A stretch of 64,000 nucleotides of DNA from a virus: the IMG/VR virus record IMGVR_UViG_3300047462_000185, positions 42,638 through 106,637 of that record; one strand, 5' to 3'. The notes beneath the pieces are model-generated. The model made no database searches. It worked only from the letters and a program-made list of their open reading frames with translations, and had not been told where the DNA came from. The stretch's first letter is position 1. Each line of letters begins with the position of its first letter. Of the stretch, positions 4,184 to 56,930 are shown in pieces. The translations under genes and the position numbers were made by a program.

Positions 4184-4576
4184 TCAGGCCATTTCCTCGG
4201 CGCGGGCCTGGTGACGCGCCAGGGTGTGCAGCCGACCCAGCACCGAGCTACCCGCACGGGGTGGAACCATCTGCTTGCCTGTCAGGTGCGCCGAGACGCC
4301 CTGAGCCGCGAGGCGCAGGATGAAAGCATCATCTTCGGCGGTGAAAACGCGCACCACCCGTCCGGCGCGGTAGTTGACCGGCTTACGGACGGGGATCGCA
4401 GTCTGGCGCCGCAGTTCGGTCGGCAGATCGACGCCGTGGGTCAGGCAATGCCAGGCGATGCAACCGGGCGACACGCCGAACCGCCGGGCAATCTCTGGGA
4501 AACCCAGGCCCTCGACCTCACGCATCTGGAACGCTCGGTCGAGGTCGTCCTGGCTGAGCTTGGCGATGCGCCTCAT
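4184..4576 (-). CDS. HTH DNA-binding protein
   Basis: GLGFPEIARRFGVSPGCI helix-turn-helix. Confidence 0.7.
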   Translation of the reverse strand: MRRIAKLSQDDLDRAFQMREVEGLGFPEIARRFGVSPGCIAWHCLTHGVDLPTELRRQTAIPVRKPVNYRAGRVVRVFTAEDDAFILRLAAQGVSAHLTGKQMVPPRAGSSVLGRLHTLARHQARAEEMA

Positions 4577-19566: not shown

Positions 19567-20541
19567 ATGCCTCAGCACTTCCTCCTGTCAGCAAAGGCCC
19601 GGACGCTCTCGCTAGCGTCGGTGCTGCGCATGACGGACGAACAGGCTGAGACGGCCTTCATCCGCATCCGCTGGGCGGCGACCGAAGGCAAGCCGGTGTG
19701 CGTCCATTGCGAGTGCCCGACCGTGTGGGACTGCCGCAAGGCGAATGGCTTGCCCCGCTGGCGCTGCAAGGCGTGCCGCAAGAGCTTCTCAATCACCAGC
19801 GGCACGATCTTCGCTTCCCGTAAGATGCCGCTGCGCAACTACCTCGCGGCCATCGCGATCTTCGTCAACGAGGTCAAGGGCAAGTCGGCGCTGGCGCTGT
19901 CCCGCGATCTCGGGTGCCAATACAAGTCGGCCTACGTCCTTGCGCACAAGCTGCGCGAGGCGATGGCGTCCGAGTTGAAAGGGCTGCGGCTGGGCGGTCC
20001 CGGCCGCGTGGCCGAAGTCGATGGCGGCTACTTCGGCGGCTACGTAAAGCCGTCCAACCGCGTCGAGAACCGCCGTGATCGCCGACTTGCCAAAAACCAG
20101 AACGGCAAGCGCCAGGTGGTCGTCGTGGTCCGCGAGCGCGAAGGCCGCACCCTTCCCGCAGTGTTCAAGTCGGAAAGCGCCGCACTCGGCTTCATCGCCC
20201 GCAGCGTCGCCAAGGACACCCAGATGATGGCCGATGAAGCCCCGTCATGGAACGGGCTGCATGCGCGGTTCGCCATGCAGCGGATCGACCATCAGGCGAT
20301 GTATTCGGACCGGGCCGGGGTCTACACGAACGGAGCCGATCGCCAGGGCGAGACCGAACCGGAGCAGGACAAGGTCTCAGACATCATCGCCGGGCGCGCG
20401 CTGGCCTGTCTCGAACACGTCCGGAAGGTGCGGTTCGGCGAGGCGTCGGCAAATTTCCAGATCTCGGATAGCGACAATCTTCCCCTCATCGTGAATATCA
20501 CGGTCAGCCTCGACCGCAACAAATGGACGCGGCACACCTGA
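19567..20541 (+). pseudogene. IS1595-family transposase, C-terminally truncated
   Basis: Zn ribbon CVHC...WRCKAC, SITSGTIF, AEVDGGYFGG, MMADE; diverges after GVYTNGA (about 20337) where ESFFS is expected. Confidence 0.85.
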
Positions 20542-33821: not shown

Positions 33822-36398
33822 ATGAACCTGCCGGATGGTGTGGCCGAGATCAGGGACACGCTGCTCGCCAACGAGATCGCGATCCAGCGCGAGCTGGGCC
33901 GGCGCTCGTTCTACGACTTCTACAAGATGGCGTGGCCCGAGCTCGATCCGGCCCCGTTCGTCGACAATTGGCACATCGGGCTGATCTGCGACGAGTTACA
34001 GGCCGCGGCGCGCCGCGAGGTGCTGAACCTGTGTATTGCAATTCCGCCAAGGCACAGCAAGCCTGTGCATGAGGATGAGCCGGTTCTCACTGCCCGAGGA
34101 CGTATTTCATTGCGCGAAGTGGTGGTGGGCGATTTCGTTCTGACCCACATGGGACGCTTTCGGCGAGTCGAGGCGGTTCACATCCAGGGCGAGTTGCCTA
34201 CGCTCACGGTGCGCGCCTGGTCAGGTCGCGCTGCCCGTATGGCACCTGACCATCCTCTGCTGACGGCGCGTGGGTGGGTGCAAGCCCAGCATTTGGTTGC
34301 GGGTGACAGGGCAGCGGTCGCACGCATCGATGAGCAATGTGGGCAGGATACCGTCTCGGCCGAGGAGGCGCGACTTCTGGGCTATCTGGTGGGTGATGGA
34401 TCATGCACTCACTCGGCAATCAACATCACAGCTCTAGATGAGACTGAAATTGCCGATATCCAGGCATGCGCCAACACCCTCGGGATCGGGACGTCCATCA
34501 CACGCAAAACAAAGACCGCAGCGGTCAAAGTCGGATTACTCAATGACAGACTGAAAAACCGATGCGGTGCTGCGCATCAGCTTATCGATCGTGCTGGCCT
34601 CACGGGCAAGAATAGCTACACGAAGCGAGCTCCGCCTTCGATTATGGCCGCAACGCAGCGCATCATCGCCGAATTCCTGGCCGCCTACTGGGCCTGCGAT
34701 GGGTATATCGCGAAACGGGGCTTCCTAAAGGACGGTAGAATTCGAACTGATGTCTGTGTCGGTTGCGACACGGTCAGCCGAGAGTTGGCGCTCGATGTCC
34801 AGCATTTGCTTTATCGGCTGGGCGTAAACTCTCGCGTCAGGACGAAGGTAGCGAAGATCAAGACTAGGAAACAGGGTAGCGACACTTACACATCGTATTC
34901 CGTCTCGATGACGTCAGCTGATGATGTCGCGCGTTTTGCGTCGGCGGTCACAATTCCGCACGCCAAGCAAGCTCTCCTTGACCGACATAAGGGGCGCACA
35001 GACTTCGATAGGCCGCTCTGGCGCGATGAGATTGTGGCAATCGAGCAGAGTGAACCCGCGCCATGTCGATGCCTGACGGTTGATGAGGATCAAAGCTTCA
35101 CCGCAGGCGACCTGGTGGTCCACAACAGCCTGCTCTGCTCCGTGGCGTTCCCGGCCTGGGTGTGGACCTGGTGGCCCGCGGCCCGCTTCATCACGTCGAG
35201 CTACGATGTGGTGAAGCTCGCGATGCGGGACGCGCTGGCGGCGCGCCGGCTGGTGACCAGCGACTGGTATCAGACGCGCTTCCCCGAAGTGAAGCTGGCG
35301 GCCGATCAGAACGTCAAGAGCTTCTACCAGACCACGGCGGGCGGGGCGCGGTTCGCCTGTAGCCCGACGGCCGGCCTCACCGGTCATGGCGCCGATTTCG
35401 CGATGTTCGACGACCCGCACAACGTCACGAAGGGTGAGTCCGAGAAGGATAGGGACAGGGCCAGGACGTTCTGGTTCGAGGCCATGTCGCCCCGGTTCAA
35501 CAACCCGTCTCACGGGGTGCGGATCGTGGTCCAGCAGCGCGTCAACGAAGCTGACGTCGCGGGCGAGTGCATCCGGCGCGGCTATCATACAGTAGTTTTG
35601 CCGGCCCGGTTCGAGCGCGACCATCCGCAGCGCTCGCCTCGGGATCCGCGCCAGGTCGAGGGTGAGTTGCTTTGGCCCGACAAGTTCTCCGATGCGGATG
35701 TCACCAAGCTCGAAAAGGACATGGGGCAGTTTGCCGCGGCGGGCCAGCTGCAGCAGCGTCCCGTGCCGCGCGAGGGTGGGCTGTTCAAGCGCCACTGGTT
35801 CGAGATCGTGGACGCGGCGCCGGCGACGCAGCGCAGGGTCAGGTCGTGGGACCTGGCCGCATCCGAGAAGAAGGTCACGTCGAGCGATCCGGACTACACC
35901 GTGGGTCTGCTCATGTCGCTGTGCGACGGCGTCTACTACATCGAGGATGTGAGGCGTGACAGGCTCTCGCCGCACGGCGTCGAGCTGATGATCACGAACA
36001 CGGCCAAGCAGGACGGCAAAGGGGTGAGGATCAGGTTCCCGCAGGACCCGGCCCAGGCCGGCAAGTTCCAGGTCCGCTATTACGTGACGCAGTTGGCCGG
36101 GTGGATGCTGCACATCGAGCAGGAGACCGGAGACAAGGTGACGCGTGCCGATCCGTTCTCGAGCCAGGCCGAGGTTGGGAATGTGAAGCTGGTCAAGGGC
36201 GCATGGAACGAGGATTTCCTGTCGGAGATCGCGATATTTCCTGGGGGTGCGCACGACGACCAGGTCGATGCGGCGACGGGCGCGTTTCGGGCCCTGACGA
36301 GCGGCACGACGGGGATCATCGACTTCTACCGGCAGCAGATCGCGGCGCGTGACGCGGCGCGTGACGCGGCACGGGGTCCGGGCGACGGCACACGATAG
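33822..36398 (+). CDS. terminase large subunit with intein
   Basis: Walker A PPRHSK/S, TGHGAD..FDDP Walker B, QQRP, SWDLA, GDKVTRA, FPGGAHDDQVDA. Confidence 0.96.
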   Translation: MNLPDGVAEIRDTLLANEIAIQRELGRRSFYDFYKMAWPELDPAPFVDNWHIGLICDELQAAARREVLNLCIAIPPRHSKPVHEDEPVLTARGRISLREVVVGDFVLTHMGRFRRVEAVHIQGELPTLTVRAWSGRAARMAPDHPLLTARGWVQAQHLVAGDRAAVARIDEQCGQDTVSAEEARLLGYLVGDGSCTHSAINITALDETEIADIQACANTLGIGTSITRKTKTAAVKVGLLNDRLKNRCGAAHQLIDRAGLTGKNSYTKRAPPSIMAATQRIIAEFLAAYWACDGYIAKRGFLKDGRIRTDVCVGCDTVSRELALDVQHLLYRLGVNSRVRTKVAKIKTRKQGSDTYTSYSVSMTSADDVARFASAVTIPHAKQALLDRHKGRTDFDRPLWRDEIVAIEQSEPAPCRCLTVDEDQSFTAGDLVVHNSLLCSVAFPAWVWTWWPAARFITSSYDVVKLAMRDALAARRLVTSDWYQTRFPEVKLAADQNVKSFYQTTAGGARFACSPTAGLTGHGADFAMFDDPHNVTKGESEKDRDRARTFWFEAMSPRFNNPSHGVRIVVQQRVNEADVAGECIRRGYHTVVLPARFERDHPQRSPRDPRQVEGELLWPDKFSDADVTKLEKDMGQFAAAGQLQQRPVPREGGLFKRHWFEIVDAAPATQRRVRSWDLAASEKKVTSSDPDYTVGLLMSLCDGVYYIEDVRRDRLSPHGVELMITNTAKQDGKGVRIRFPQDPAQAGKFQVRYYVTQLAGWMLHIEQETGDKVTRADPFSSQAEVGNVKLVKGAWNEDFLSEIAIFPGGAHDDQVDAATGAFRALTSGTTGIIDFYRQQIAARDAARDAARGPGDGTR
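34062..35126 (+). mobile_element. intein with LAGLIDADG homing endonuclease, inserted in the TerL P-loop
   Basis: K|PVHEDEPVLT...APDHPLLT...LLGYLVGDGS...FLAAYWACDGY...CRCLTVDEDQSFTAGDLVVHN|S; codon usage differs from flanks. Confidence 0.93.
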
Positions 36399-44606: not shown

Positions 44607-44819
44607 CGCACTGATTCCGCATCAGTCCCGTCTCCTACTCCGGGAGCCATGTGACCACCAAAACTTCCTGCGTTATCAACAGCTTAATAGCGGAAAACCG
44701 CCGCGCCACGCATTTCGTGGTCGTCCGGCAAGAGCCGTAGAAAACCGCCAAAAACCCGTTGAAGCCGGGCCGAGTCATGTGACACGGATGGGACACCGTG
44801 TCCCATGCCCTGGTGTCCC
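44577..44819. other. attP: tRNA 3'-end core (44633-44649) with GGGACAC arm-type repeats
   Basis: TCCTACTCCGGGAGCCA resembles a tRNA-Asn/Gln 3' end; GGGACAC at 44577, 44589, 44790; GTGTCCC at 44798, 44813. Confidence 0.8.
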
Positions 44820-46025
44820 ATGCCCCTCACCGACGTTCAGGTCCGCAAGGCCAAGCCGCGCGACAAGCGCTACCGCCTGGCCGACGGTGATTGCCTCTCC
44901 CTCCTGGTGCTGCCCAGCGGGGTGAAATCGTGGCGCTTCCGTCGAGTCAGGGGTGGCGTCGAGCAGGTCCAGACCCTCGGCCAATACCCGGACATGAGCC
45001 TGATCGCGGCCCGCCGGCGGCGCGACGAGCTGCTCGACGCGCCGATCGCCGGCTCGGCCGTCTCACCCCCGCTGCGCGACGTGGCGCGGGCATGGCACAC
45101 CGCCCAGGCGCCAATCTGGAAGCCGGGCCACGCCCGCGACGTCTGGACCGACCTGGAGCGGGAGATCTGGCCCAAGCTGGGCGACAAGCCGCTCTCGACG
45201 ATCACCAGGCCCGAAATCCTGGCCGTGTTGCAGCCTATCCAGGACAGGGGCGCGGTCGACCTGGCGCACCGGCTGCGCCAGCGACTGACCGACATCTGGG
45301 GCTTCGCGATCCAGGGCGGCGCGCCGGTGAGCAACCCGCTGGTCGGCATGGAGCGCGCCATGACGAAGCTGATCCAGCGCGGCCGCCGGCCCGCCGCGCT
45401 GACGCTCGAGGGCGCGCGGCAGGTGCTGGGCCGGGTCGACCGAATCCCGGCGCACCCGATCACGCGGTTCGCGGTGCGCCTGCTCGCCCTGACCGCGTTG
45501 CGCCCTGGCGAGTTGCGCCTGGGCCGCTGGGAGGACCTGACCGACCTGGATGGCGACGAGCCGATCTGGCGCGTCCCGCCGCTGCGCATGAAGCACAAGC
45601 TGGTCGACCAGCTCGACCAGCACGAGCACTTGGTGCCGCTGTCCCGGCAGACCGTGGCGCACCTGCGGGCGCTGCACCGGCTGACCGGCAAGACCCCGCT
45701 GATGTTCCATTCCTGGCTGGCGCGCGGCAATCCGCTGACCGAGGACGGCCTGATCCGGATCCACCAGCGCGCCGGGCTGTCAGGGGTGCAGGTGCCACAC
45801 GGCTGGCGCGCCACGTTCAGCACGATCATGAACGAGCGCTACGGGGCGGATTACAGCGTGATAGAGCTGATGCTGGCCCACAAGCCGAAGGACCAGGTCG
45901 CGGCGGCCTACAACCGGGCGCAGCACATGGCGCGCCGCCGCGAGTTGGCGCAGCGCTGGGCCGACCTCCTCATGATCGGGTTGCTGGAGCCGGAGCAGCT
46001 GGTGGAACTGCCTCGACGGGGTTGA
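44820..46025 (+). CDS. tyrosine integrase (P4-like, N-terminal arm-binding domain)
   Basis: LTDVQVRKAK...DGDCL.L.V.PSGVKSW; TALRPGELR; HGWRATFST; LAH; AYNR. Confidence 0.96.
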   Translation: MPLTDVQVRKAKPRDKRYRLADGDCLSLLVLPSGVKSWRFRRVRGGVEQVQTLGQYPDMSLIAARRRRDELLDAPIAGSAVSPPLRDVARAWHTAQAPIWKPGHARDVWTDLEREIWPKLGDKPLSTITRPEILAVLQPIQDRGAVDLAHRLRQRLTDIWGFAIQGGAPVSNPLVGMERAMTKLIQRGRRPAALTLEGARQVLGRVDRIPAHPITRFAVRLLALTALRPGELRLGRWEDLTDLDGDEPIWRVPPLRMKHKLVDQLDQHEHLVPLSRQTVAHLRALHRLTGKTPLMFHSWLARGNPLTEDGLIRIHQRAGLSGVQVPHGWRATFSTIMNERYGADYSVIELMLAHKPKDQVAAAYNRAQHMARRRELAQRWADLLMIGLLEPEQLVELPRRG

Positions 46026-49373: not shown

Positions 49374-49748
49374 ATGCCGGACGATCTGAACAAGCTGTTC
49401 GGACTCGACAAGCTGCCACCGCCGGTCGACCAAGACGAGCGCACCCTCCTCGATGGATCGCCCGTCACACCGGATCATCTCGAAATCCAGCCCGACGGCA
49501 TGCAGAAGAGCTATATGGTGCTCAGCGAGGCCGAACGCGCCAAGGGCTTCGTGCGCCCCGTCAGGCACTCCTACAGGCATTTGACCTGCGGCACGGTCAC
49601 CACGATGGGAAGTGCGCTGGCCGAGACTTATGCGCGCTCGCCCACGTTCTATTCGGGCACGTTCTGCGTCGGTTGCCGCAAGCACCTTCCGGTCGGTGAG
49701 GATGGTGAGTTCGTGTGGGATGGCACTGACGAGAAGGTCGGCACATGA
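49374..49748 (+). CDS. conserved hypothetical phage protein
   Basis: YMVLSEAERAKGFVRPVR.SY.H..CG.VTTM..ALAETYAR.P.FY..TFC..C. Confidence 0.75.
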   Translation: MPDDLNKLFGLDKLPPPVDQDERTLLDGSPVTPDHLEIQPDGMQKSYMVLSEAERAKGFVRPVRHSYRHLTCGTVTTMGSALAETYARSPTFYSGTFCVGCRKHLPVGEDGEFVWDGTDEKVGT

Positions 49749-50468
49749 CCACGCGCGCCGCTGACGATGTCACCGAGATCGCGAAGCGCACCAAGCAGCT
49801 TCGGGACGAGCGCGAGATGGCGACTGATATCGACAAGGCCACAGGCGAGTGGCTGGACCTGCACGGCCGCCGTGCCGGTGTGACGCGGGTCGCTCATGAG
49901 TCCGATTATGCCTATCGCAACCGCATCAAAGCGGCGACAGGACAGTGACAGCCAATGCGAAAACCTCGATCCGGATGCGTCGGCCTGGCGGCGGCGATCT
50001 CGACGGCTATATTTTCACTGATGAGGCCCATGCGCGCCGGTGGTTGCAGCAGGGATTCGTGGCCGACTGGGATATCAGACTTGAGCGCGTTGAGCTGAAA
50101 AACGACGGCATATGTCCGCATTGCCGCGGTTCGGGCACCAGTGAACGCCACGCCAAGGTAATCCAGCGGCTGAGTGTGGCCGAATTCCTGGGGAAATCAT
50201 GACCGCATACATCGACGCCGCCAGTCTGAACGAAAACGACCGGATCATAATGATCGGGTCGTCGGTGATGAAGGCGCCGGCGTCGTCGGCCGACAAGCCG
50301 CTGGTCGCCGGCTTCATCGTCGAGACGGACGAGAAGGCCGATCGCTACATCGCCAAGCTGCAGAAGCGCTTCCCCGGCATTCGTGTCATCGACCGCAACC
50401 CTGGCCCAGTGGCTGACACGGTCCTGGTGCGGGTCGGGCCGCCCCTACGGTGATCACGAAAATTCCGC

Positions 50469-50498
50469 TTGCGCGACCACATCAAGATGGGATAGCGC
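50469..50498 (+). promoter_or_regulatory. putative sigma70-type promoter of the tRNA operon, with an operator in the spacer
   Basis: TTGCGC-N18-TAGCGC; CACATCAAGATGGG near-operator at 50478-50491. Confidence 0.5.
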
Positions 50499-50506
50499 TT
50501 CCGGTC

Positions 50507-50611
50507 ATGAGCATGAAGCCATCACATCGCGTCACGAATACATTCCGGCTCGGGCAAGAAAAGCCCGCGTCGCAGGGTATTTGCGCGCGTGGAGGGTTCT
50601 GGCGGGGGTAA
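50507..50611 (+). CDS. putative attenuator leader peptide (34 aa, MSMKPSHRVTNTFRLGQEKPASQGICARGGFWRG)
   Basis: short ORF whose last codons overlap the 5' strand of the antiterminator. Confidence 0.6.
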   Translation: MSMKPSHRVTNTFRLGQEKPASQGICARGGFWRG

Positions 50612-50637
50612 CGCCCCGGATCGGCGAAAGCCACCAG

Positions 50638-50674
50638 AAGCCTCCGCGGGTCAGCCCTCGGAGGCTTTTTTGTT
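50638..50674 (+). terminator. intrinsic terminator upstream of the tRNA array, with competing antiterminator 50588-50648
   Basis: AAGCCTCCG-CGGGTCAGCCCT-CGGAGGCTT-TTTTGTT. Confidence 0.85.
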
Positions 50675-50757
50675 GCTCGCGAGATGTCAGTCCTGTGCAA
50701 GTCCAGGGCCAAGCGCCGACTACGTGGCCTGGTAGAGCTTTTTGTTCTTTGACTTGT

Positions 50758-50832
50758 GGGGGCGTAGCTCAGCGGGAGAGCACTGGTCCTGCAAACCGGG
50801 TGTCGTCGGTTCGAGTCCGACCGCTTCCACCA
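50758..50832 (+). tRNA. tRNA-Ala(TGC)
   Basis: cloverleaf, G3:U70, encoded CCA; C33. Confidence 0.9.
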
Positions 50833-50836
50833 CTAT

Positions 50837-50911
50837 GCGGCTGTAGCTCAGAGGTAGAGCACCTGCTTGCCAAGCAGGATGTCGAGGGTTCGATTCCCTC
50901 TGGCCGCTCCA
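50837..50911 (+). tRNA. tRNA-Gly(GCC)
   Basis: canonical cloverleaf, U73, CCA. Confidence 0.95.
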
Positions 50912-50940
50912 TATTGCGTGTCCCGATTGGGACGATAGTT

Positions 50941-51015
50941 GCGCTTGTAGCTTAATGGTAGAGCCGGCTGCTCATAACAGCCTCGGTGCCCGTTCGACCC
51001 GGGCCGGGCGCACCA
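50941..51015 (+). tRNA. tRNA-Ile2/Met(CAT)
   Basis: cloverleaf, loop CTCATAA; Ile2 vs Met unresolved. Confidence 0.85.
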
Positions 51016-51034
51016 TTTGGCTCGCGCAGGAGAT

Positions 51035-51110
51035 AGCGGGGTAGACTGGAGGCGGTTCCAGCTAGGTCTCATAAGCCTAAGAGGGTGGTTCGATTCCACC
51101 CCCGCTACCA
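51035..51110 (+). tRNA. tRNA-Met(CAT), atypical D arm and acceptor
   Basis: TAGGT-CTCATAA-GCCTA, T loop TTCGATT, CCA. Confidence 0.75.
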
Positions 51111-51114
51111 AATT

Positions 51115-51189
51115 GCCGATGTAGCTCAGTGGTAGAGCGCCGCTTTGAAGAAGCGGGCGTGGGTGGTTCAATTCCATCCGTCGGCACCA
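51115..51189 (+). tRNA. tRNA-Phe(GAA)
   Basis: cloverleaf, loop TTGAAGA. Confidence 0.92.
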
Positions 51190-51193
51190 CGAT

Positions 51194-51269
51194 GCGGCGC
51201 TAACACTCTGGGGAGTGTGTCTGCCTTCCAAGCAGTTCCAGACGGGTTCGATCCCCGTGCGCCGCTCCA
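51194..51269 (+). tRNA. tRNA-Gly(TCC)
   Basis: cloverleaf, loop CTTCCAA. Confidence 0.9.
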
Positions 51270-51331
51270 TCTAGCCGGGAGTGCTCCATTTTGCACGTCC
51301 GCGCCACGGTGCGGTCCGGCGGCCATTTCGA

Positions 51332-51408
51332 TCCGGTCGGTCCATAATGGCAATGGAACGAGACTGTTAATCTCGACGCTGCTGGTTCGAATCCAGCGAC
51401 CGGAGCCA
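51332..51408 (+). tRNA. tRNA-Asn(GTT)
   Basis: U1-A72, G73, loop CTGTTAA. Confidence 0.9.
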
Positions 51409-51412
51409 GTTT

Positions 51413-51486
51413 GGGAGTCAAGTGTTACGGTAGCACGACCGGCTCCAACCCGGTTAGCGTGGGTTCAACTCCTACGACTCCTGCCA
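51413..51486 (+). tRNA. tRNA-Trp(CCA)
   Basis: loop CTCCAAC, G73. Confidence 0.9.
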
Positions 51487-51490
51487 AATT

Positions 51491-51566
51491 GCGTCGCGAG
51501 CCAGACGGCAGAGGCGTTCCGCTGCAAACGGAAAAACACCGTGTTCAATTCACGGGCGGCGCTCCA
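51491..51566 (+). tRNA. tRNA-Cys(GCA)
   Basis: loop CTGCAAA, U73. Confidence 0.85.
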
Positions 51567-51573
51567 ACTCGAT

Positions 51574-51649
51574 GGTGACGTGAGTCAGCCGGCGTGGACG
51601 GCCCGCTGTGACCGGGTCTAGATGGGTTCAACTCCCATACGTCACCCCA
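51574..51649 (+). tRNA. tRNA-His(GTG)
   Basis: G-1:C73, loop CTGTGAC. Confidence 0.88.
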
Positions 51650-51653
51650 ATTT

Positions 51654-51728
51654 GCCGGATTAGCACAGCGGAAGTGCAGTGGTTTTGTAAACCGAAGGTC
51701 AGGAGTTCGAATCTCCTATCCGGCTCCA
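51654..51728 (+). tRNA. tRNA-Thr(TGT)
   Basis: loop TTTGTAA. Confidence 0.92.
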
Positions 51729-51737
51729 GTTTCATGA

Positions 51738-51811
51738 TCCCCGGTCGTCTAATGGCAGGACATCGGATTCTGGATCCGAGGGTTGTGGTTCGAGTCCATG
51801 CCGGGGAGCCA
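51738..51811 (+). tRNA. tRNA-Gln(CTG)
   Basis: U1-A72, loop TTCTGGA. Confidence 0.92.
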
Positions 51812-51847
51812 TTGAAACACACACTTCGATGTGTTATTGCCGTTTTA

Positions 51848-52159
51848 ATGAAGATGCGCACCGATCGCAGTCAGATCAAGGAAATGCTTCGAAGAGGCGT
51901 TTCATATTCGAAGATCACTGCTAAGACGGGCGCAACAAAAGGCACGCTCAGCTACATAGCAAAGAGCAGTGGAAAACCTCTAACGCTTCGTCTTGATCAT
52001 TTCGATGGTGATGGAGGAAATCACGACATTGAAAACCTACGGTTCATATGTCCCAATTGCGATAGCCAATCTCCAACTTACGGACACAGAAACCGCGGGC
52101 GTTACGCTCGGCTTGGGGTTAAGCTTTCAAGTGTGCAGGGTAGCCACACCGCGTTTTGA
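51848..52159 (+). pseudogene. HNH homing-endonuclease remnant inside the tRNA array
   Basis: HTH-like N-terminus fused to PLTLRLDHFDGDGGNHDIENLRFICPNCDSQ; first CxxC absent; lower GC. Confidence 0.7.
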
Positions 52160-52198
52160 GCGCGGAAGCAAGGGGTTCGACTCCTCGGCCCCAAACCA
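52113..52198 (+). tRNA. tRNA-Gln(TTG), about 10-nt insertion before the D arm
   Basis: TTGGGGT/GCCCCAA acceptor, CCGCG-TTTTGAG-CGCGG. Confidence 0.7.
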
Positions 52199-52202
52199 GT
52201 TT

Positions 52203-52277
52203 CGCCCATTCGTTCAATGGCAGGACAACCGATTCTCGATCGGTCAACGCGGGTTCGATTCTCCGCATGGGCGACCA
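52203..52277 (+). tRNA. tRNA-Glu(CTC)
   Basis: loop TTCTCGA. Confidence 0.85.
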
Positions 52278-52280
52278 GTT

Positions 52281-52362
52281 GCGCGTGTGGCGGAACGGTA
52301 GACGCGGCCCCCTTAAAGCGGGCTGTCTCGGCGTGCAGGTTCGATTCCTGTCGCGCGCACCA
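52281..52362 (+). tRNA. tRNA-Leu(TAA)
   Basis: class II D loop, loop CTTAAAG, variable arm. Confidence 0.88.
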
Positions 52363-52376
52363 ATCAGGAGCAGCAC

Positions 52377-52571
52377 ATGAGTGATCGCGATGTCCCGCTG
52401 CACACCTACGAGCTGATCTATCGAGACGCCAATGTGAAGCGACAGCGCATGCGCGTCGCCGGCGGCTGGATCTACTCGTGCTCGCTGCTTAGCTCGACCG
52501 GCAGCGTGGCAATTTCGGAAGTTTTGGTTCCAGATGCTCGCGTGGGCCAACAGGTAGAGTCAGCACGTTGA
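52377..52571 (+). CDS. small hypothetical protein within the tRNA array
   Basis: AGGAG SD; RMRVAGGWIY motif; 3' end overlaps tRNA-Leu(GAG). Confidence 0.6.
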   Translation: MSDRDVPLHTYELIYRDANVKRQRMRVAGGWIYSCSLLSSTGSVAISEVLVPDARVGQQVESAR

Positions 52572-52612
52572 GAGCGTGTCCAGTGCCGGTTCGAGTCCGG
52601 CCGCGAGCACCA
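52536..52612 (+). tRNA. tRNA-Leu(GAG), short variable loop
   Basis: loop TTGAGAG, A73. Confidence 0.88.
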
Positions 52613-52616
52613 GATT

Positions 52617-52693
52617 GCGGGGATGGGCAAATCGGTAAAGTCGCTGCGTTCAGACCGCAAGGTGTGGGCTTCGAATGCACCCGCTCTCCGCCA
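52617..52693 (+). tRNA. tRNA-Leu(CAG), degenerate
   Basis: loop TTCAGAC; bulged T stem; no NCCA after acceptor. Confidence 0.6.
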
Positions 52694-52696
52694 AAT

Positions 52697-52785
52697 GGAA
52701 GGTGAAGTCGGCAGGAGCCGGCCGCCCGTTCGAAACGGGAGGAGACCCGCGAGGGTCAGGGGATCAAGACCTCCGCCTTCCGCCA
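52697..52785 (+). tRNA. tRNA-Ser(CGA)
   Basis: GGA/TCC acceptor, G73, long V arm, loop TTCGAAA. Confidence 0.85.
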
Positions 52786-52789
52786 GCTT

Positions 52790-52878
52790 GGATCGTGCCG
52801 GGGGTTGGCTCCCCCAGCGGGTTGCTAACCCGTGGCTCCCCTCCGGGGATGAGGGTTCGATGCCTTCACGATCCGCCA
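52790..52878 (+). tRNA. tRNA-Ser(GCT)
   Basis: loop TTGCTAA, long V arm, G73. Confidence 0.85.
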
Positions 52879-52879
52879 T

Positions 52880-52955
52880 GCCCCGTTAGCAGAGTGGCTA
52901 ATGCGCGTCCTTGGTAAGGACGAGATCGCCGGTTCGATTCCGGCACGGGGCTCCA
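52880..52955 (+). tRNA. tRNA-Thr(GGT)
   Basis: loop TTGGTAA. Confidence 0.9.
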
Positions 52956-53041
52956 TACGACCAGCCGTTTGCACCACGCCTGAGCCGGCCGCGGCCTGAT
53001 GGGGCCGGACGCTTTCGCGAACGGGTGTGGCAGGCTGTGCT

Positions 53042-53126
53042 GGGCAGGGACAGCCGGTGGCTCCGGCGAGCGGCCTGTAAAGCCGTGCCCTTCGGGGGAG
53101 AGGATCGAAACCTCACCTGCCCACCA
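53042..53126 (+). tRNA. tRNA-Tyr(GTA)
   Basis: loop CTGTAAA, V arm, A73. Confidence 0.85.
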
Positions 53127-53128
53127 TT

Positions 53129-53203
53129 GCTCGCGTAGCTCAATGGCAGAGCAGTCGGTTGATAACCGACCGACGATGGGTTCGATTCCCACCGCAAGCA
53201 CCA
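53129..53203 (+). tRNA. tRNA-Ile(GAT)
   Basis: loop TTGATAA. Confidence 0.9.
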
Positions 53204-53214
53204 GATCACGAGAA

Positions 53215-53290
53215 ACACCGGTAACTCAGAGGCCAGAGTGCTGTCCTTTTAAGTCAGAGGTCGCGGGTTCGAATCCCGTCCGGTGTTCCA
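53215..53290 (+). tRNA. tRNA-Lys(TTT)
   Basis: loop CTTTTAA, U73. Confidence 0.88.
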
Positions 53291-53363
53291 TGAATTCCTC
53301 GCGGACGCGCGGGGCGCTGCATTCCGCGATAGGTCCAAAGAGCACGCGGGTGCAGCTGGATTT

Positions 53364-53437
53364 GCTCGCATCTTTCAGTGGCAGGAAGCTGGATTGTCGA
53401 TCCGGTAACAGGGGTTCGATCCCCCTTGCGAGCGCCA
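53364..53437 (+). tRNA. tRNA-Asp(GTC)
   Basis: loop TTGTCGA, G73. Confidence 0.9.
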
Positions 53438-53568
53438 TAAAGCCGCTTCATCAAATCGGCGCGCCATCTACCTGCCGCTTGCCGAGGCGCGGCGAGGGTC
53501 AAACCGAAGCCGAGGGGTGCGACCCGCCCCGAAGCCTGGGGCTCGCCCGCCACGGCAAGCAGCAGTTT

Positions 53569-53644
53569 CAGGGCGTAGGACAGTGGCCAGTCCGCCTGCT
53601 TCGGGAGCAGGAGATCGTGAGTTCGAATCTCACCGCCTTGACCA
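53569..53644 (+). tRNA. tRNA-Pro(CGG)
   Basis: C1-G72, loop TTCGGGA. Confidence 0.93.
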
Positions 53645-53652
53645 TTTTCGTT

Positions 53653-53725
53653 GTCCTCGCCTGCGGATCAGGCGCCGGCACTCCTAATGCTGGGTGCGCC
53701 GGTTCGAATCCGGCCGGGGACGCCA
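53653..53725 (+). tRNA. tRNA-Arg(CCT), non-canonical core
   Basis: loop CTCCTAA, 6-bp anticodon stem, no 8-9 linker. Confidence 0.8.
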
Positions 53726-53726
53726 A

Positions 53727-53801
53727 CAGGATGTAGCTCAATGGGAGAGCACCGCGTTTGGGGCGCGGGGGCTGGTGGTTCGAGTCCACTCATCCTGACC
53801 A
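53727..53801 (+). tRNA. tRNA-Pro(TGG)
   Basis: loop TTTGGGG. Confidence 0.93.
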
Positions 53802-53804
53802 ATT

Positions 53805-53879
53805 GCGTGCATAGCTCAGCGGGAGAGCGCTCCGTTCACACCGGGGATGTCGGGAGTTCAATCCTCTCTGCACGCACCA
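53805..53879 (+). tRNA. tRNA-Val(CAC)
   Basis: loop TTCACAC. Confidence 0.93.
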
Positions 53880-53951
53880 GTTCGGGGGGCACAGTCCCGC
53901 CCGTGGGGCACGGTCCGACCCGGAGAACCGGTCGGCCGCGAAGCTATCGTT

Positions 53952-54026
53952 GCGCGCCTAGCTCATCGGGAGAGCGTCGCTTTGACATAGCGAAGGCGGC
54001 CGGTTCGATTCCGGCGGCGCGCACCA
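53952..54026 (+). tRNA. tRNA-Val(GAC)
   Basis: loop TTGACAT. Confidence 0.93.
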
Positions 54027-54039
54027 GCTACCGCTCCGG

Positions 54040-54305
54040 CGGTTATGGCTGTAACGGCCTGGATGGAATGCCGACCTGGACCCGGGGGCAGCGCCCGGCG
54101 TCTCCACCAAGGGGGACGACGCAGATCTCGACAGGTCGATCAAAGATCCAGGCTCAGCCCGGCAAGGAACGGCCGGCAATCTGTCCGCATGAGAAATGCC
54201 AATGACAACACTGGCATGGGAGCGGTGCGCCTCGCGGCGTAACCACCCGGCGCCCTGAGGGGGGCGTGGCAACAGCAGGGGCGGCCCTCGAAAGGTCGCC
54301 CCACC
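54040..54305 (+). ncRNA. ssrA: circularly permuted two-piece tmRNA; tag (A)ANDNTGMGAVRLAA
   Basis: acceptor 3' end CGTCTCC-ACCA (to 54109) precedes 5' end GGGGACG (54112, G3:U70); tag ORF 54198-54242; CGACCTG/CAGGTCG and GCCTGGAT/ATCCAGGC pairings; outer ends approximate. Confidence 0.92.
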
Positions 54306-54316
54306 CTCGCCTATTC

Positions 54317-54392
54317 GGGGCTGTGGCGCAGCTGGGAGCGCGTCTGCATGGCATGCAGAAGGTCGTCGGTTCGATTCCGACCAGTTCCACCA
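54317..54392 (+). tRNA. tRNA-Ala(GGC)
   Basis: G3:U70, loop ATGGCAT. Confidence 0.95.
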
Positions 54393-54396
54393 AATT

Positions 54397-54470
54397 GCCG
54401 CGGTCGAATAAGGTAGTTCACCGGTCCTTCAAATCGGTCGGCGCGGGTTCAAATCCCGTCCGCGGCACCA
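54397..54470 (+). tRNA. tRNA-Glu(TTC)
   Basis: loop CCTTCAA. Confidence 0.85.
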
Positions 54471-54495
54471 ACCGTTTCCATATTGGAAAGTGTTT

Positions 54496-54568
54496 ACCCC
54501 TGCCGATGGCTCTCGGGCTCTGCGCTACGAACGTGGAAGAGCTGGTTCGATTCCAGTCAGGGGTTCCA
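54496..54568 (+). tRNA. tRNA-Arg(ACG), non-canonical core
   Basis: loop CTACGAA; D stem abuts acceptor. Confidence 0.8.
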
Positions 54569-54574
54569 GATCAT

Positions 54575-54646
54575 GCGGCGGCCGCCGAGCCGGGCCATGG
54601 CCTTCTAAGCCGAGGGAGGTGGGGCAAGCACCCACCCGCCGCACCA
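54575..54646 (+). tRNA. tRNA-Arg(TCT), highly divergent
   Basis: GCGGCGG/CCGCCGC-ACCA, loop CTTCTAA, T loop GCAAGCA. Confidence 0.65.
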
Positions 54647-54650
54647 GCTT

Positions 54651-54723
54651 GCTCTCGCCTGTGGATCAGGCGCTGACCCTCCGAAGGTCGGACGCGCCGG
54701 TTCGAATCCGGCCGAGAGCTCCA
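54651..54723 (+). tRNA. tRNA-Arg(CCG), non-canonical core
   Basis: loop CTCCGAA, same fold as Arg(CCT). Confidence 0.8.
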
Positions 54724-54818
54724 GCAAGGGACCGGGTCGCGTGCGAGCGTGTCTCCCGGGACAAAGTCGATGCCGAGACGCGAGCCCCGGCATGGTCCCT
54801 CACAGCGGCGGCGCGACC

Positions 54819-54894
54819 GGCTGACGACGAGCGTGGAATGCAGTCCCGAGATGCCGCGCGGGGCAGGCCGTTCGATACGGCTAGTCGTCAGCCA
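54819..54894 (+). ncRNA. tRNA-like RNA without a canonical anticodon loop
   Basis: acceptor TGACGAC/GTCGTCA-GCCA, T arm GGCCG-TTCGATA-CGGCT, 10-nt loop AGATGCCGCG. Confidence 0.6.
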
Positions 54895-54943
54895 AACCGC
54901 CCAAAATCGGCGAAAAATATTCCTGGAAATATTCCAGATCGTT

Positions 54944-55025
54944 GCGGGCGTGGCGGAAAGGTAGACGCGGCCGGCTCAAACCCGGCTGATCATTCGTGCA
55001 GGTTCGAATCCTGTCGCTCGCACCA
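54944..55025 (+). tRNA. tRNA-Leu(CAA)
   Basis: loop CTCAAAC, class II D loop. Confidence 0.9.
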
Positions 55026-55031
55026 TTTCAT

Positions 55032-55119
55032 GGACCAGTGCGCCGAGTGGCGAAGGCAGCCGACTCTTAATCGGATGGGCGAAAGCCCCGCGTGAGTTCG
55101 AATCTCACCTGGTCCTCCA
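55032..55119 (+). tRNA. tRNA-Lys(CTT) with long variable arm
   Basis: loop CTCTTAA; V arm GGGC-GAAA-GCCC. Confidence 0.85.
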
Positions 55120-55121
55120 AT

Positions 55122-55196
55122 GCCCGTGTAGCTCAATGGCAGAGCAGCCGCCTCGTAAGCGGCCGACGAGCGGTTCGATTCCGCCCACCGGCTCCA
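55122..55196 (+). tRNA. tRNA-Thr(CGT)
   Basis: loop CTCGTAA. Confidence 0.88.
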
Positions 55197-55244
55197 TGAG
55201 GATGTGTTATCTCGGCTCTACCAACAACCGCGAAAGCCCGTGTC

Positions 55245-55829
55245 ATGCGTGCCAGAAACTCCGCCCTCGACCTGGAAGCGCTCGTCCTCAACGCTGACGC
55301 GCGGCCGCTCTCGACCTGGCCGCTCAGCAAGGAAAGCGCACGCGACGCCATCACCGCCGTGATGAAAGGCAACGTCGAGGTGGTCGACACCTGGGACGCC
55401 GTGATCCGCACGCCGCGCATCGAAATCCCGGTGCCGAAGGTCATCATGCTGCGCTACTACGCGCCGATCCGGGCCGAGCCGAAGTTCTGCCGGGCCAGCG
55501 TGTTCCTGCGCGACAGGTTCAAGTGCCAATACTGCGGCGAGCCGTTTCCGCGCGAGCAGTTGACCTACGACCACGTCATCCCGCGCACCAAGGGCGGCCA
55601 GACCGTGTGGGAAAACATCCTGACCTGCTGCGAGACCTGCAACGCGCTCAAGCGCGACCGGCCGGCCAACTGGAGCGGCAGGCGCGGCGCCGGCGAGATG
55701 CGTCCGCTCAAGGCGCCTCGGCGCCCCAGCACGGCCGAACTGCTCCGCGCCGGGCTCGATCTGCTCGACCAGGAGACGCGGGAGACCTGGGGCGACTGGC
55801 TCTACTGGAACGCCGAGCTGAAGGCCTAA
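55245..55829 (+). CDS. HNH endonuclease (McrA-like)
   Basis: LVLNAD.RPLS...VFLRDRFKCQYCG...LTYDHVIPRTKGG.TVWENILTCC..CN..K. Confidence 0.93.
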   Translation: MRARNSALDLEALVLNADARPLSTWPLSKESARDAITAVMKGNVEVVDTWDAVIRTPRIEIPVPKVIMLRYYAPIRAEPKFCRASVFLRDRFKCQYCGEPFPREQLTYDHVIPRTKGGQTVWENILTCCETCNALKRDRPANWSGRRGAGEMRPLKAPRRPSTAELLRAGLDLLDQETRETWGDWLYWNAELKA

Positions 55830-56027
55830 GCGTTGTTGGCCGCGATCCAGCCAGCCTGAGCCTCGGCGTTTAGGTTGCCTTCCGCGATGAAGCGGTCGAA
55901 CTCCGGATCATCGAGCGAGCCGAAATAGCGCGACACGAGCCACCGTCCCTGGAGCCACAGGCCCAGCGTGACGGTGGCGATCGGCGTCTCGCTGGGCCAC
56001 GCCTTGGGCGCGAATTCGTTCATGATG

Positions 56028-56930
56028 TCACGCCATTTCCTTCTGACCTGTGTTGAGTCGCCCACGCGACGGCACGTCATGCGTGCTCGCGATAGGCGGG
56101 AAGCCGGCACTGGTCCGCTCCGAGTCCTGGACCCGCAGCACCGTCATGGGTCGGTTCGCCACCCAGGCGTTCCACGTCTTCACGCCCAGCACGAGCCGAT
56201 CGATGGTGCGCAGCTTGGTGTGCGACATCGCATCGTTGACCAGGCGCTCATGATAGCGCCGGGTCGGGCTCGTCTCCGCGCCCTGCCCGTCGTCGACCGA
56301 CGACGCGAATTCCCGGGTCTCGTCGAACGTGCTGCGCCGGCACACCAGGGCAAGCAGGCCGCCGAACCATGCCGCCTTGATCGCCTGGAACCGTAGCGAT
56401 CCGTTGAAATTCGCGATGTCCTGGATGATCGGGAATTTCTTCAAGGTATCGACGATGTCGGCCGACTCGAGTGGGCACGACATGTAGGAGATCGAACCAG
56501 CATCATAGTGCCACACGATCTTGGCGATCGCGGCGCAGCGTTTGGCTTCCTGCACGCCGTTGATGTCGAGCACGTCGGCCGCGCTCCGCTTCGAGCCTGT
56601 CCCGGTTGCTGTGAACGCTTCGCGCGCGATGCCGAACCTGATGTCACAAATCGCGGCAATGCCGGTCTCATGGATCGCGGTGAGCCGGTGCTGCCCGTCG
56701 TTGAGGATGCCTTCCCGGCTGACGATGATCGGCTCGCCGGTGTTCACCCATTGGCCGCGCTCCAGGATGTTGGAAAACCGGCGCACCAAGGACTTCTTTA
56801 CGGACCGGTTGCCCGTGTTGAGGCGCAGAATCCAACCCGCCACATCGGCCGTGCAAAGCCCTGTGATGGTGCCGTCGTATTCGGTCACCAGGGTAAGCAG
56901 ATCATCCTCGGTCGTGGCGATCGGCTTCAT
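56028..56930 (-). CDS. ParB-like/DGQHR domain protein
   Basis: NTGNR...GQWVNTGEPI.....GILNDGQHRLTAI. Confidence 0.8.
   Translation of the reverse strand: MKPIATTEDDLLTLVTEYDGTITGLCTADVAGWILRLNTGNRSVKKSLVRRFSNILERGQWVNTGEPIIVSREGILNDGQHRLTAIHETGIAAICDIRFGIAREAFTATGTGSKRSAADVLDINGVQEAKRCAAIAKIVWHYDAGSISYMSCPLESADIVDTLKKFPIIQDIANFNGSLRFQAIKAAWFGGLLALVCRRSTFDETREFASSVDDGQGAETSPTRRYHERLVNDAMSHTKLRTIDRLVLGVKTWNAWVANRPMTVLRVQDSERTSAGFPPIASTHDVPSRGRLNTGQKEMA

Follow-up and report, generated by a model that had tools for sequence, protein, structure and literature searches.

A candidate transcription attenuator, possibly operated by ribosomes, at the entrance of a phage tRNA/tmRNA array

The array and its genomic surroundings

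The window analyzed here covers the 3'-terminal 64 kb of a virus record of 106,637 bp in IMG/VR (IMGVR_UViG_3300047462_000185; completeness rating 93%), and DNA near-identical to it is contained in moss metagenomes; no RNA run was listed among the sequencing runs that contain the stretch. Among the products encoded are an intein-containing terminase, a portal protein for which only one distant relative was found, a primase-helicase, an integrase, and an IS1595-type transposase. The tyrosine integrase (44805-46025, plus strand), the GC3 of which (0.93) is far above that of the rest of the phage, and the IS1595-family transposase (19567-20541, plus strand) are unusual company for a phage carrying a complete tRNA set. 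This set is arranged in a 4.4-kb array (Table 1) together with a permuted tmRNA of the alpha-proteobacterial type at about 54030-54333 (112 bits). The first-pass annotation had claimed 37 tRNAs plus a tmRNA for this array; the tmRNA is present, whereas the number of tRNAs comes down to about 31 by ARAGORN and Rfam. Because of its tmRNA type, the host of the phage is probably an alphaproteobacterium.

The genes upstream of the array, from 49374 to 50453, are chained by 4-nt start/stop overlaps and have Shine-Dalgarno sequences, so that their transcripts must run into the leader that separates the last of them, a well-supported gene of 84 aa, from the first tRNA. No sigma-70-like promoter was found in 49500-56500 by a sigma-70 scan, and the 83-nt spacer before the first tRNA, which was also read by eye, contains no recognizable promoter. 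Within the array, the terminator scan returned no terminator on the plus strand, the lone match there being the T-arm of a tRNA-Pro. Since neither a promoter nor a further terminator was found up to the array, the terminator at the end of the leader is its apparent single gate, and the array appears to rely on read-through.

Relatives of the 84-aa gene were examined at 60 JGI metagenome loci, one IMG/VR locus, and one GTDB MAG contig, and none of these more than 60 loci has a leader-like sequence (blastn, tblastn) or a downstream tRNA array. Directly after the relative of this gene lies a DNA polymerase-like gene in locus L002 and a small ORF in locus L037, with no terminator. Given that relatives of the 84-aa gene without an array are also without the terminator and leader, the leader, as judged by these loci, goes with the array and not with the upstream operon. 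Relatives of a 124-aa gene of the phage were found at 31 loci, none of them syntenic with an array. Moreover, an HNH endonuclease gene directly follows the last tRNA, and this, along with the absence of the array from the relatives sharing the 84-aa gene, suggests that the whole array may be a mobile insertion. The sole match of the 84-aa gene in GTDB genomes (63% identity) is on CAWJTQ010000027.1, a 229-kb contig of an Isosphaeraceae (planctomycete) MAG, where the homologue adjoins a homologue of the 124-aa gene. This match is at odds with the alphaproteobacterial type of the tmRNA and may reflect a prophage or an error of binning. Relatives with 69-74% identity to the 84-aa gene are encoded on Logan contigs.

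Table 1. Positions of the leader elements, the array and neighboring genes in the window, with the terminators of the phage phiCbK used for comparison
Feature	Coordinates	Strand	Basis or remark
Large terminase subunit, split by an intein carrying a LAGLIDADG homing-endonuclease domain	33822-36398	+	Pfam LAGLIDADG_3, Intein_splicing, Terminase_6C
Last well-supported upstream protein gene, 84 aa, end of overlap chain	50199-50453	+	Shine-Dalgarno, GC3 0.86, 16 homologues
Extended 53-codon form of the candidate leader ORF, same frame, GTG start overlapping the 84-aa gene stop (GTGA)	50450-50611	+	ORF list
Weak promoter-like element: CTTGCG, 17 nt, GATAGC; starts 39 nt before ATG	50468-50496	+	Read from sequence
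Candidate leader ORF, 34 codons plus UAA	50507-50611	+	ORF list, codon counts, masking
Segment 1, weak partner of the antiterminator 5' strand (putative anti-antiterminator), inside ORF	50511-50528	+	MFE of full leader
Stable apical hairpin within ORF	50529-50588	+	-26.8 kcal/mol, z -3.6
Segment 2, antiterminator 5' strand	50588-50602	+	Folding, duplex test
Two small enclosed hairpins, P2 and P3	50603-50632	+	Folding
Segment 3, antiterminator 3' strand, overlaps terminator 5' arm	50634-50648	+	Folding, duplex test
Intrinsic terminator, hairpin and U-tract (UUUUUUGUU)	50640-50665 and 50666-50674	+	Folding, terminator scan
Spacer from terminator to first tRNA, 83 nt	50675-50757	+	Sigma-70 scan and reading by eye
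tRNA array, about 31 tRNAs and permuted tmRNA	50758-55196	+	ARAGORN and Rfam
HNH endonuclease gene directly 3' of last tRNA	55245-55829	+	phrog_16726, E 5e-30; GC3 0.92
phiCbK annotated terminators	1121-1167, 2746-2770, 4466-4503 of JX100813 47000-53000		12, 23, 129 nt before three tRNA blocks

Two predicted, competing folds of the leader

A strong intrinsic terminator just before the first tRNA, one of the features first noticed at this locus, was recovered with a small shift in coordinates. Its hairpin, GCCUCCG-C-GGG / UCAG / CCC-U-CGGAGGC, is followed by a U-tract with a run of six U at 50666-50671, from which 86 nt remain to the first tRNA. The predicted energy is -19 to -23.5 kcal/mol, the value of -23.5 being reached with an A/U extension (50637-50668), and the element is among about ten strong terminators in a genome-wide scan. 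The 5' arm of this terminator had also been proposed to pair alternatively with RNA further upstream, and folding confirms this pairing between segments 2 and 3 as well as both of the hairpins enclosed by it, P2 (CGGGG/CCCCG, 50603-07/50614-18) and P3 (GGC-GAAA-GCC, 50623-32). In the resulting antiterminator helix, 14 of 15 positions are paired, one of them as G-U, with a single G/G mismatch, and the helix closes a three-way junction (-39.5 kcal/mol, z -5.4 for the junction alone). The predicted terminator and antiterminator are mutually exclusive.

The alternative pairing is not what would be expected by chance. When the terminator 5' arm (plus 6 nt) was set against the 150 nt upstream, the duplex reached -28.3 kcal/mol, compared with -17.7 +/- 2.2 kcal/mol for dinucleotide shuffles (n = 300; z -4.8, 0/300), and in the same test nine further strong terminators of this genome gave z values of -1.6 to +1.0. 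The region 50469-50680 as a whole is strongly structured (z -4.07). A geometry of the trp/his type had been suggested for this leader, and it holds in part: the terminator and the antiterminator are both there, whereas the pairing of segment 1 with segment 2, seen in the MFE of the full leader, is no better than in shuffles (z +0.55). On the minus strand, 50563-50593 contains a hairpin followed by TTTTCTTGC that has a terminator-like score (-14 kcal/mol); it corresponds to the apical leader hairpin in reverse complement and is likely to be incidental.

In the full leader, the state that combines segment 1:2 pairing with the terminator is predicted at -82.1 kcal/mol and the best antiterminator state at -78.1 kcal/mol, while a local terminator in which segment 2 stays unpaired falls short of the antiterminator by 7 kcal/mol. 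The MFE of the growing transcript contains segment 1:2 until 50640, the antiterminator at 50644-50664, and the terminator only from 50668. At 50648, the antiterminator (-70.5 kcal/mol) and segment 1:2 (-58.8 kcal/mol) are 11.7 kcal/mol apart, with an estimated barrier of about 7; refolding barriers in general were estimated at 7-16 kcal/mol. These values, like all folds given here, come from thermodynamic prediction. As the predicted states are nearly balanced, kinetics must decide the outcome in this model, as expected for an attenuator.

The effect of a ribosome was modeled by moving a 28-nt mask codon by codon along the leader and predicting the equilibrium fold at each position. The free RNA, with no mask, folds into the terminator (pTerm 0.999). 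With the A-site at codons 5-17 the antiterminator is predicted at a pAT of 0.55-1.0, at codons 18-22 the terminator is predicted, at codons 23-24 the result is mixed (pAT 0.74 and 0.46), and at codons 25-35, the last of which is the stop, pTerm is about 1.0. The first-pass annotation held that complete translation would favor termination and stalling would allow read-through; with the footprint masked, the predicted folds agree with both statements (late codons or stop in the one case, codons 5-17 in the other). It should be noted that masking either 50511-50545 or 50588-50603 switches the predicted fold regardless of the masking agent, and the masking response is, in these predictions, a property of the RNA and not of the reading frame. 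Taken with the position of the two folds, these predictions make it probable that a genuine and unusual terminator/antiterminator switch lies at the gate of a complete tRNA/tmRNA array, and we infer that the alternation between the folds would regulate entry into it.

Searches of IMG/VR (including three exact-pattern scans), JGI metagenomes, GTDB genomes, and GenBank phages found no homologous leader. The sole informative comparison is with a strain variant, a single lineage present in two moss-metagenome samples (X5 and X8), which was compared over 50133-51068. Its leader differs at six positions, of which 50461, 50484, and 50504 are upstream of the folded part; the remaining three are compatible with the structure, 50524 being a bulge, 50525 a C to U change that keeps a G-U pair, and 50654 a position in the terminator loop. 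There are no changes at all in 50526-50653. Divergence is about 5-6% upstream of 50525 and about 0.6% from 50526 through the spacer and the first tRNAs, and the variant also has a 20-nt deletion at 50918. Selection on the switch was considered as the cause of the unchanged stretch and rejected, the spacer and tRNAs being equally invariant; the pattern looks like a recombination mosaic with a boundary near 50525, inside the leader.

None of the families reported by an Rfam cmscan at E up to 10 reached its gathering score. A T-box leader was rejected, with no T-box match at this threshold and no UGGN among the unpaired nucleotides of the antiterminator, and so were the known metabolite riboswitches, no riboswitch family matching over the switch. 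The lone riboswitch row is a 12-nt match to nhaA-I at 50432-50443 (13.8 bits, cut-off 37), and the terminator has a generic match only, to ctRNA_p42d (25 bits, cut-off 50).

The candidate leader frame and its translation signals

The frame that overlaps these pairings ends with a UAA (50609-50611) located in the P2 loop, just past the antiterminator 5' strand. Its length and codon counts proved correct as originally given, with 34 codons, 18 amino acids, and 27 distinct codons, 20 of them in the first 22. The 53-codon form begins at a GTG (50450) that overlaps the stop of the 84-aa gene in the manner of the upstream gene chain, so coupled translation is possible. Signals of translation were sought in several ways. 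No Shine-Dalgarno sequence precedes ATG 50507, ATG 50513, or GTG 50450, whereas one is present at 4/4 upstream genes. GC content by codon position is 0.54/0.57/0.66 in the 34-codon ORF and 0.61/0.52/0.59 in the 53-codon form, compared with a GC2 of 0.45-0.50 and a GC3 of 0.66-0.86 in neighboring real genes; on this measure the ORF is without coding composition. In addition, the 53-aa product has no relative among 5.8 billion proteins, where it is also absent as a called protein. In shuffles of the region, an ATG ORF of at least 25 codons with the right end occurs in 14% and one with any start codon in 25%, and half of shuffled 34-codon strings are open. Another frame, which is spurious, is open for 190 codons (50383-50955, plus strand) across the leader and two tRNA genes, and hence an open frame means little at such a GC content.

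The codon diversity of the ORF had been read as a pan-codon design, by which the loss of almost any tRNA would be sensed. Such diversity is ordinary for the local composition, given which at least 27 codons are expected with a P of 0.26 and at least 20 in the first 22 with a P of 0.19, values that leave the ORF indistinguishable from a random open frame of such composition. The 18 amino acids are mildly high on the same basis (P 0.03). Relative to real phage genes, the codon diversity is higher than usual (P 0.05-0.08), an excess that reflects composition. The stall window, codons 4-17, contains 14 different codons, with neither runs nor enrichment of regulatory codons, and such runs are absent from the ORF as a whole. 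Pan-codon sensing of tRNA loss, although attractive, is best treated as speculative.

The putative promoter reported just before the ORF turns out to be weak, the sigma-70 scan having no match there and the pattern not being enriched (motif search not significant), and for this reason a leaderless start at the ATG is a conjecture. In Caulobacter, translation commonly starts without a Shine-Dalgarno sequence or on leaderless transcripts (PMC4117421, PMC8459731). Control by a ribosome on the overlapping frame, which presupposes that the ORF would be translated, is plausible from the masking predictions, although we hold it with distinctly less than even confidence.

Possible modes of control and comparison with known systems

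Our leading interpretation, offered tentatively and at somewhat short of an even chance, is that the element may be a transcription attenuator at the array entrance, most likely operated by a ribosome on the short frame. Transcripts would come from the upstream early-gene cluster or from the weak promoter at about 50468-50496. In one fold, segments 2 and 3 would pair into the three-way-junction antiterminator and the polymerase would continue into the array; in the other, the terminator hairpin would form and transcription would stop at the U-tract. The operator would most likely be a ribosome on the 34-codon frame (ATG 50507) or the coupled 53-codon frame (GTG 50450). A ribosome keeping abreast of the polymerase, at codons 25-34 or the stop, would cover the antiterminator 5' strand, resulting in the terminator and a silent array, and one that is slow or stalled at codons 5-17 would leave this strand free for the antiterminator, allowing synthesis of the tRNAs and tmRNA. 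For a ribosome-free leader, the equilibrium fold would be the terminator, and the co-transcriptional order of folding would favor the antiterminator. In its most specific version, with translation speed as the signal, the leader would be a gauge in which the transit of the ribosome relative to RNA polymerase decides whether the tRNA set and tmRNA are transcribed; this version is doubtful on present evidence.

The same features could belong to a plain end-of-operon or insulating terminator, the upstream complementarity being merely part of a stable 3' structure and the array being expressed by leak or from an unrecognized (e.g. phage-specific) promoter. This explanation is the best of the alternatives, albeit rather improbable. 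The terminator is indeed the first on the plus strand after the overlapping genes, the free full-length RNA folds into it, translation of the ORF has neither supporting signals nor a homologue, and comparative searches gave no homologous leader. Against it, the antiterminator pairing deviates strongly from shuffled sequence, with nothing like it at the nine other terminators of the genome, the array-less relatives with the 84-aa gene have no terminator at this place, and a downstream promoter was not found in the sigma-70 scan.

A second alternative retains the switch and replaces its operator by a trans-acting one, either a protein of phage or host origin (RNA-binding or antitermination) or a small RNA acting on segment 1 or 2 or the junction, which would put the array under temporal control. 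Antitermination factors, such as N and Q of lambda, commonly carry phage transcription past terminators that separate early from later units. The fold flips whatever masks the two critical stretches, and the ORF lacks translation signals, both of which would suit such a factor. The position of the stop codon in the P2 loop, just past the antiterminator 5' strand, suits ribosome control instead, neither a candidate factor nor a repeated binding motif came to light, and Rfam finds no known protein-binding or T-box leader; a trans-acting operator is judged unlikely. Less likely still is a stand-alone structured sRNA gene of about 165-200 nt, extending from the promoter-like element to the terminator and functioning in trans, possibly besides attenuation. 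The strong structure of the region, the promoter-like element, and the strong terminator are all consistent with such a gene, and Alphaproteobacteria are known to have sRNAs that derive from attenuators and function in trans, for example, rnTrpL of Sinorhizobium (PMC6614838). Nevertheless, there is no Rfam family match, the promoter is weak, no homologues were found, and the better upstream partner of the terminator 5' arm would be left unexplained. Finally, a metabolite riboswitch aptamer, with the three-way junction as aptamer and its P1 helix as the antiterminator (an ON switch), fits in architecture, since the 3' strand of P1 overlaps the terminator 5' arm, and is nonetheless very improbable, as no family matches over the switch even at E 10, P1, at 15 bp and nearly perfect, would be stable in the absence of a ligand, the hairpins and junctions it encloses are minimal, and no conserved relatives were found.

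If the ribosome-operated attenuator is real, it bears on a subject about which almost nothing is known, namely, how phages control their tRNA arrays, the one bacterial array studied, that of Anabaena, being induced by stress through its promoter. Phage tRNAs are now viewed as countermeasures to tRNA-cleaving host defenses (PMC10264068, PMC11555353). The phage would make its own decoding and rescue RNAs when host translation slows, whether through tRNA-cleaving nucleases, starvation, or antibiotics, and a gate read by the ribosome would be a simple feedback by which tRNAs and tmRNA are produced when decoding falters. Leader-peptide attenuation, known for amino-acid and resistance genes, would then reach the translation apparatus itself. 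If the ribosome were to play no part, the leader would still be a clean and testable RNA switch governing about 31 tRNAs and a tmRNA together. The first-pass annotation knew of no described pan-codon attenuator on a phage tRNA array, and literature searches likewise turned up no paper in which tRNA genes or arrays are controlled by attenuation.

Among established systems, the closest in logic are the attenuators of amino-acid operons, such as trpL, hisL, leuL, thrL, and pheL, and trpE(G)/rnTrpL of Sinorhizobium (PMC6614838), with which the phage leader has in common a short ORF over alternative pairings and a terminator 5' arm with an alternative partner upstream. In these attenuators a ribosome at the end of the ORF leads to termination and an early stall to read-through, as in the predicted folds here. 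Unlike them, the phage leader has no runs of regulatory codons, a chance-level 1:2 pairing, and no Shine-Dalgarno sequence; the Rfam His_leader model gives it only 20.7 bits (cut-off 49), and the genes controlled would be tRNAs and a tmRNA in place of biosynthetic enzymes. By these predictions it would work like a leader-peptide attenuator, while its membership in the family is not established because the translation signals and regulatory codons are missing.

Attenuators of antibiotic-resistance genes, including msrD and mef/mel, use stalling leader ORFs (PMC4335068), and the toiL uORF senses several classes of ribosome-targeting antibiotics (PMC12121999). Their leaders are likewise without an amino-acid theme, the signal proposed for the phage being generally slow or stalled ribosomes, and their read-through output relieves the translation problem, as is proposed here. 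In these systems translation and stalling of the leader have been demonstrated experimentally, whereas the phage ORF is a candidate, the output of which would be tRNAs and tmRNA. A further parallel is the L-array of tRNA genes in Anabaena PCC 7120, which is silent until translation is impaired (PMC8421152). It resembles the phage array, as interpreted here, in being a large tRNA array with expression tied to translational stress, and it is horizontally mobile. Its control is exerted by direct repeats in the promoter, probably via a repressor, and the text of the paper mentions no leader, attenuator, or terminator (PMC8421152).

The Caulobacter phage phiCbK (GenBank JX100813) offers the nearest counterpart among phages, as it has annotated rho-independent terminators directly before three tRNA blocks (Table 1); attenuation is not discussed in its genome paper (PMC3556154). 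Its host, like the probable host of the phage studied here, is alphaproteobacterial, and it too has terminators before tRNA genes and short ORFs without Shine-Dalgarno sequences. Block 3 is preceded by a 32-codon ORF of this kind, and its terminator arm has an upstream partner with a z of -7.1, whereas at blocks 1 and 2 the partners have z values of -0.5 and -1.3, that is, no significant antiterminator. Equilibrium footprint masking of the block 3 leader was uninformative, as it gave the terminator at every position. A CTTGACA box lies 39 (block 1) and 37 (block 3) nt before the ATG in phiCbK, compared with CTTGCGC at 39 nt here, and this match in the spacing from -35 to ATG is suggestive. As for the peptides, gp083 of phiCbK, the product of one of these short ORFs, has 45 aa, is rich in Ser, Leu, Lys, and Pro, and is encoded before a block of Pro, Lys, Leu, and Ser tRNAs; the block 3 leader peptide is Arg-rich, and according to the genome paper phiCbK has no Arg tRNA (PMC3556154). 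The two phages differ in that the tRNAs of phiCbK lie in several small blocks with a cassette apiece, and those of the phage described here in one complete array behind a single cassette; their leaders have no sequence homology. The likeness is thus one of analogy and not of homology, and as such it may make ribosome-linked control of phage tRNA arrays more likely a priori.
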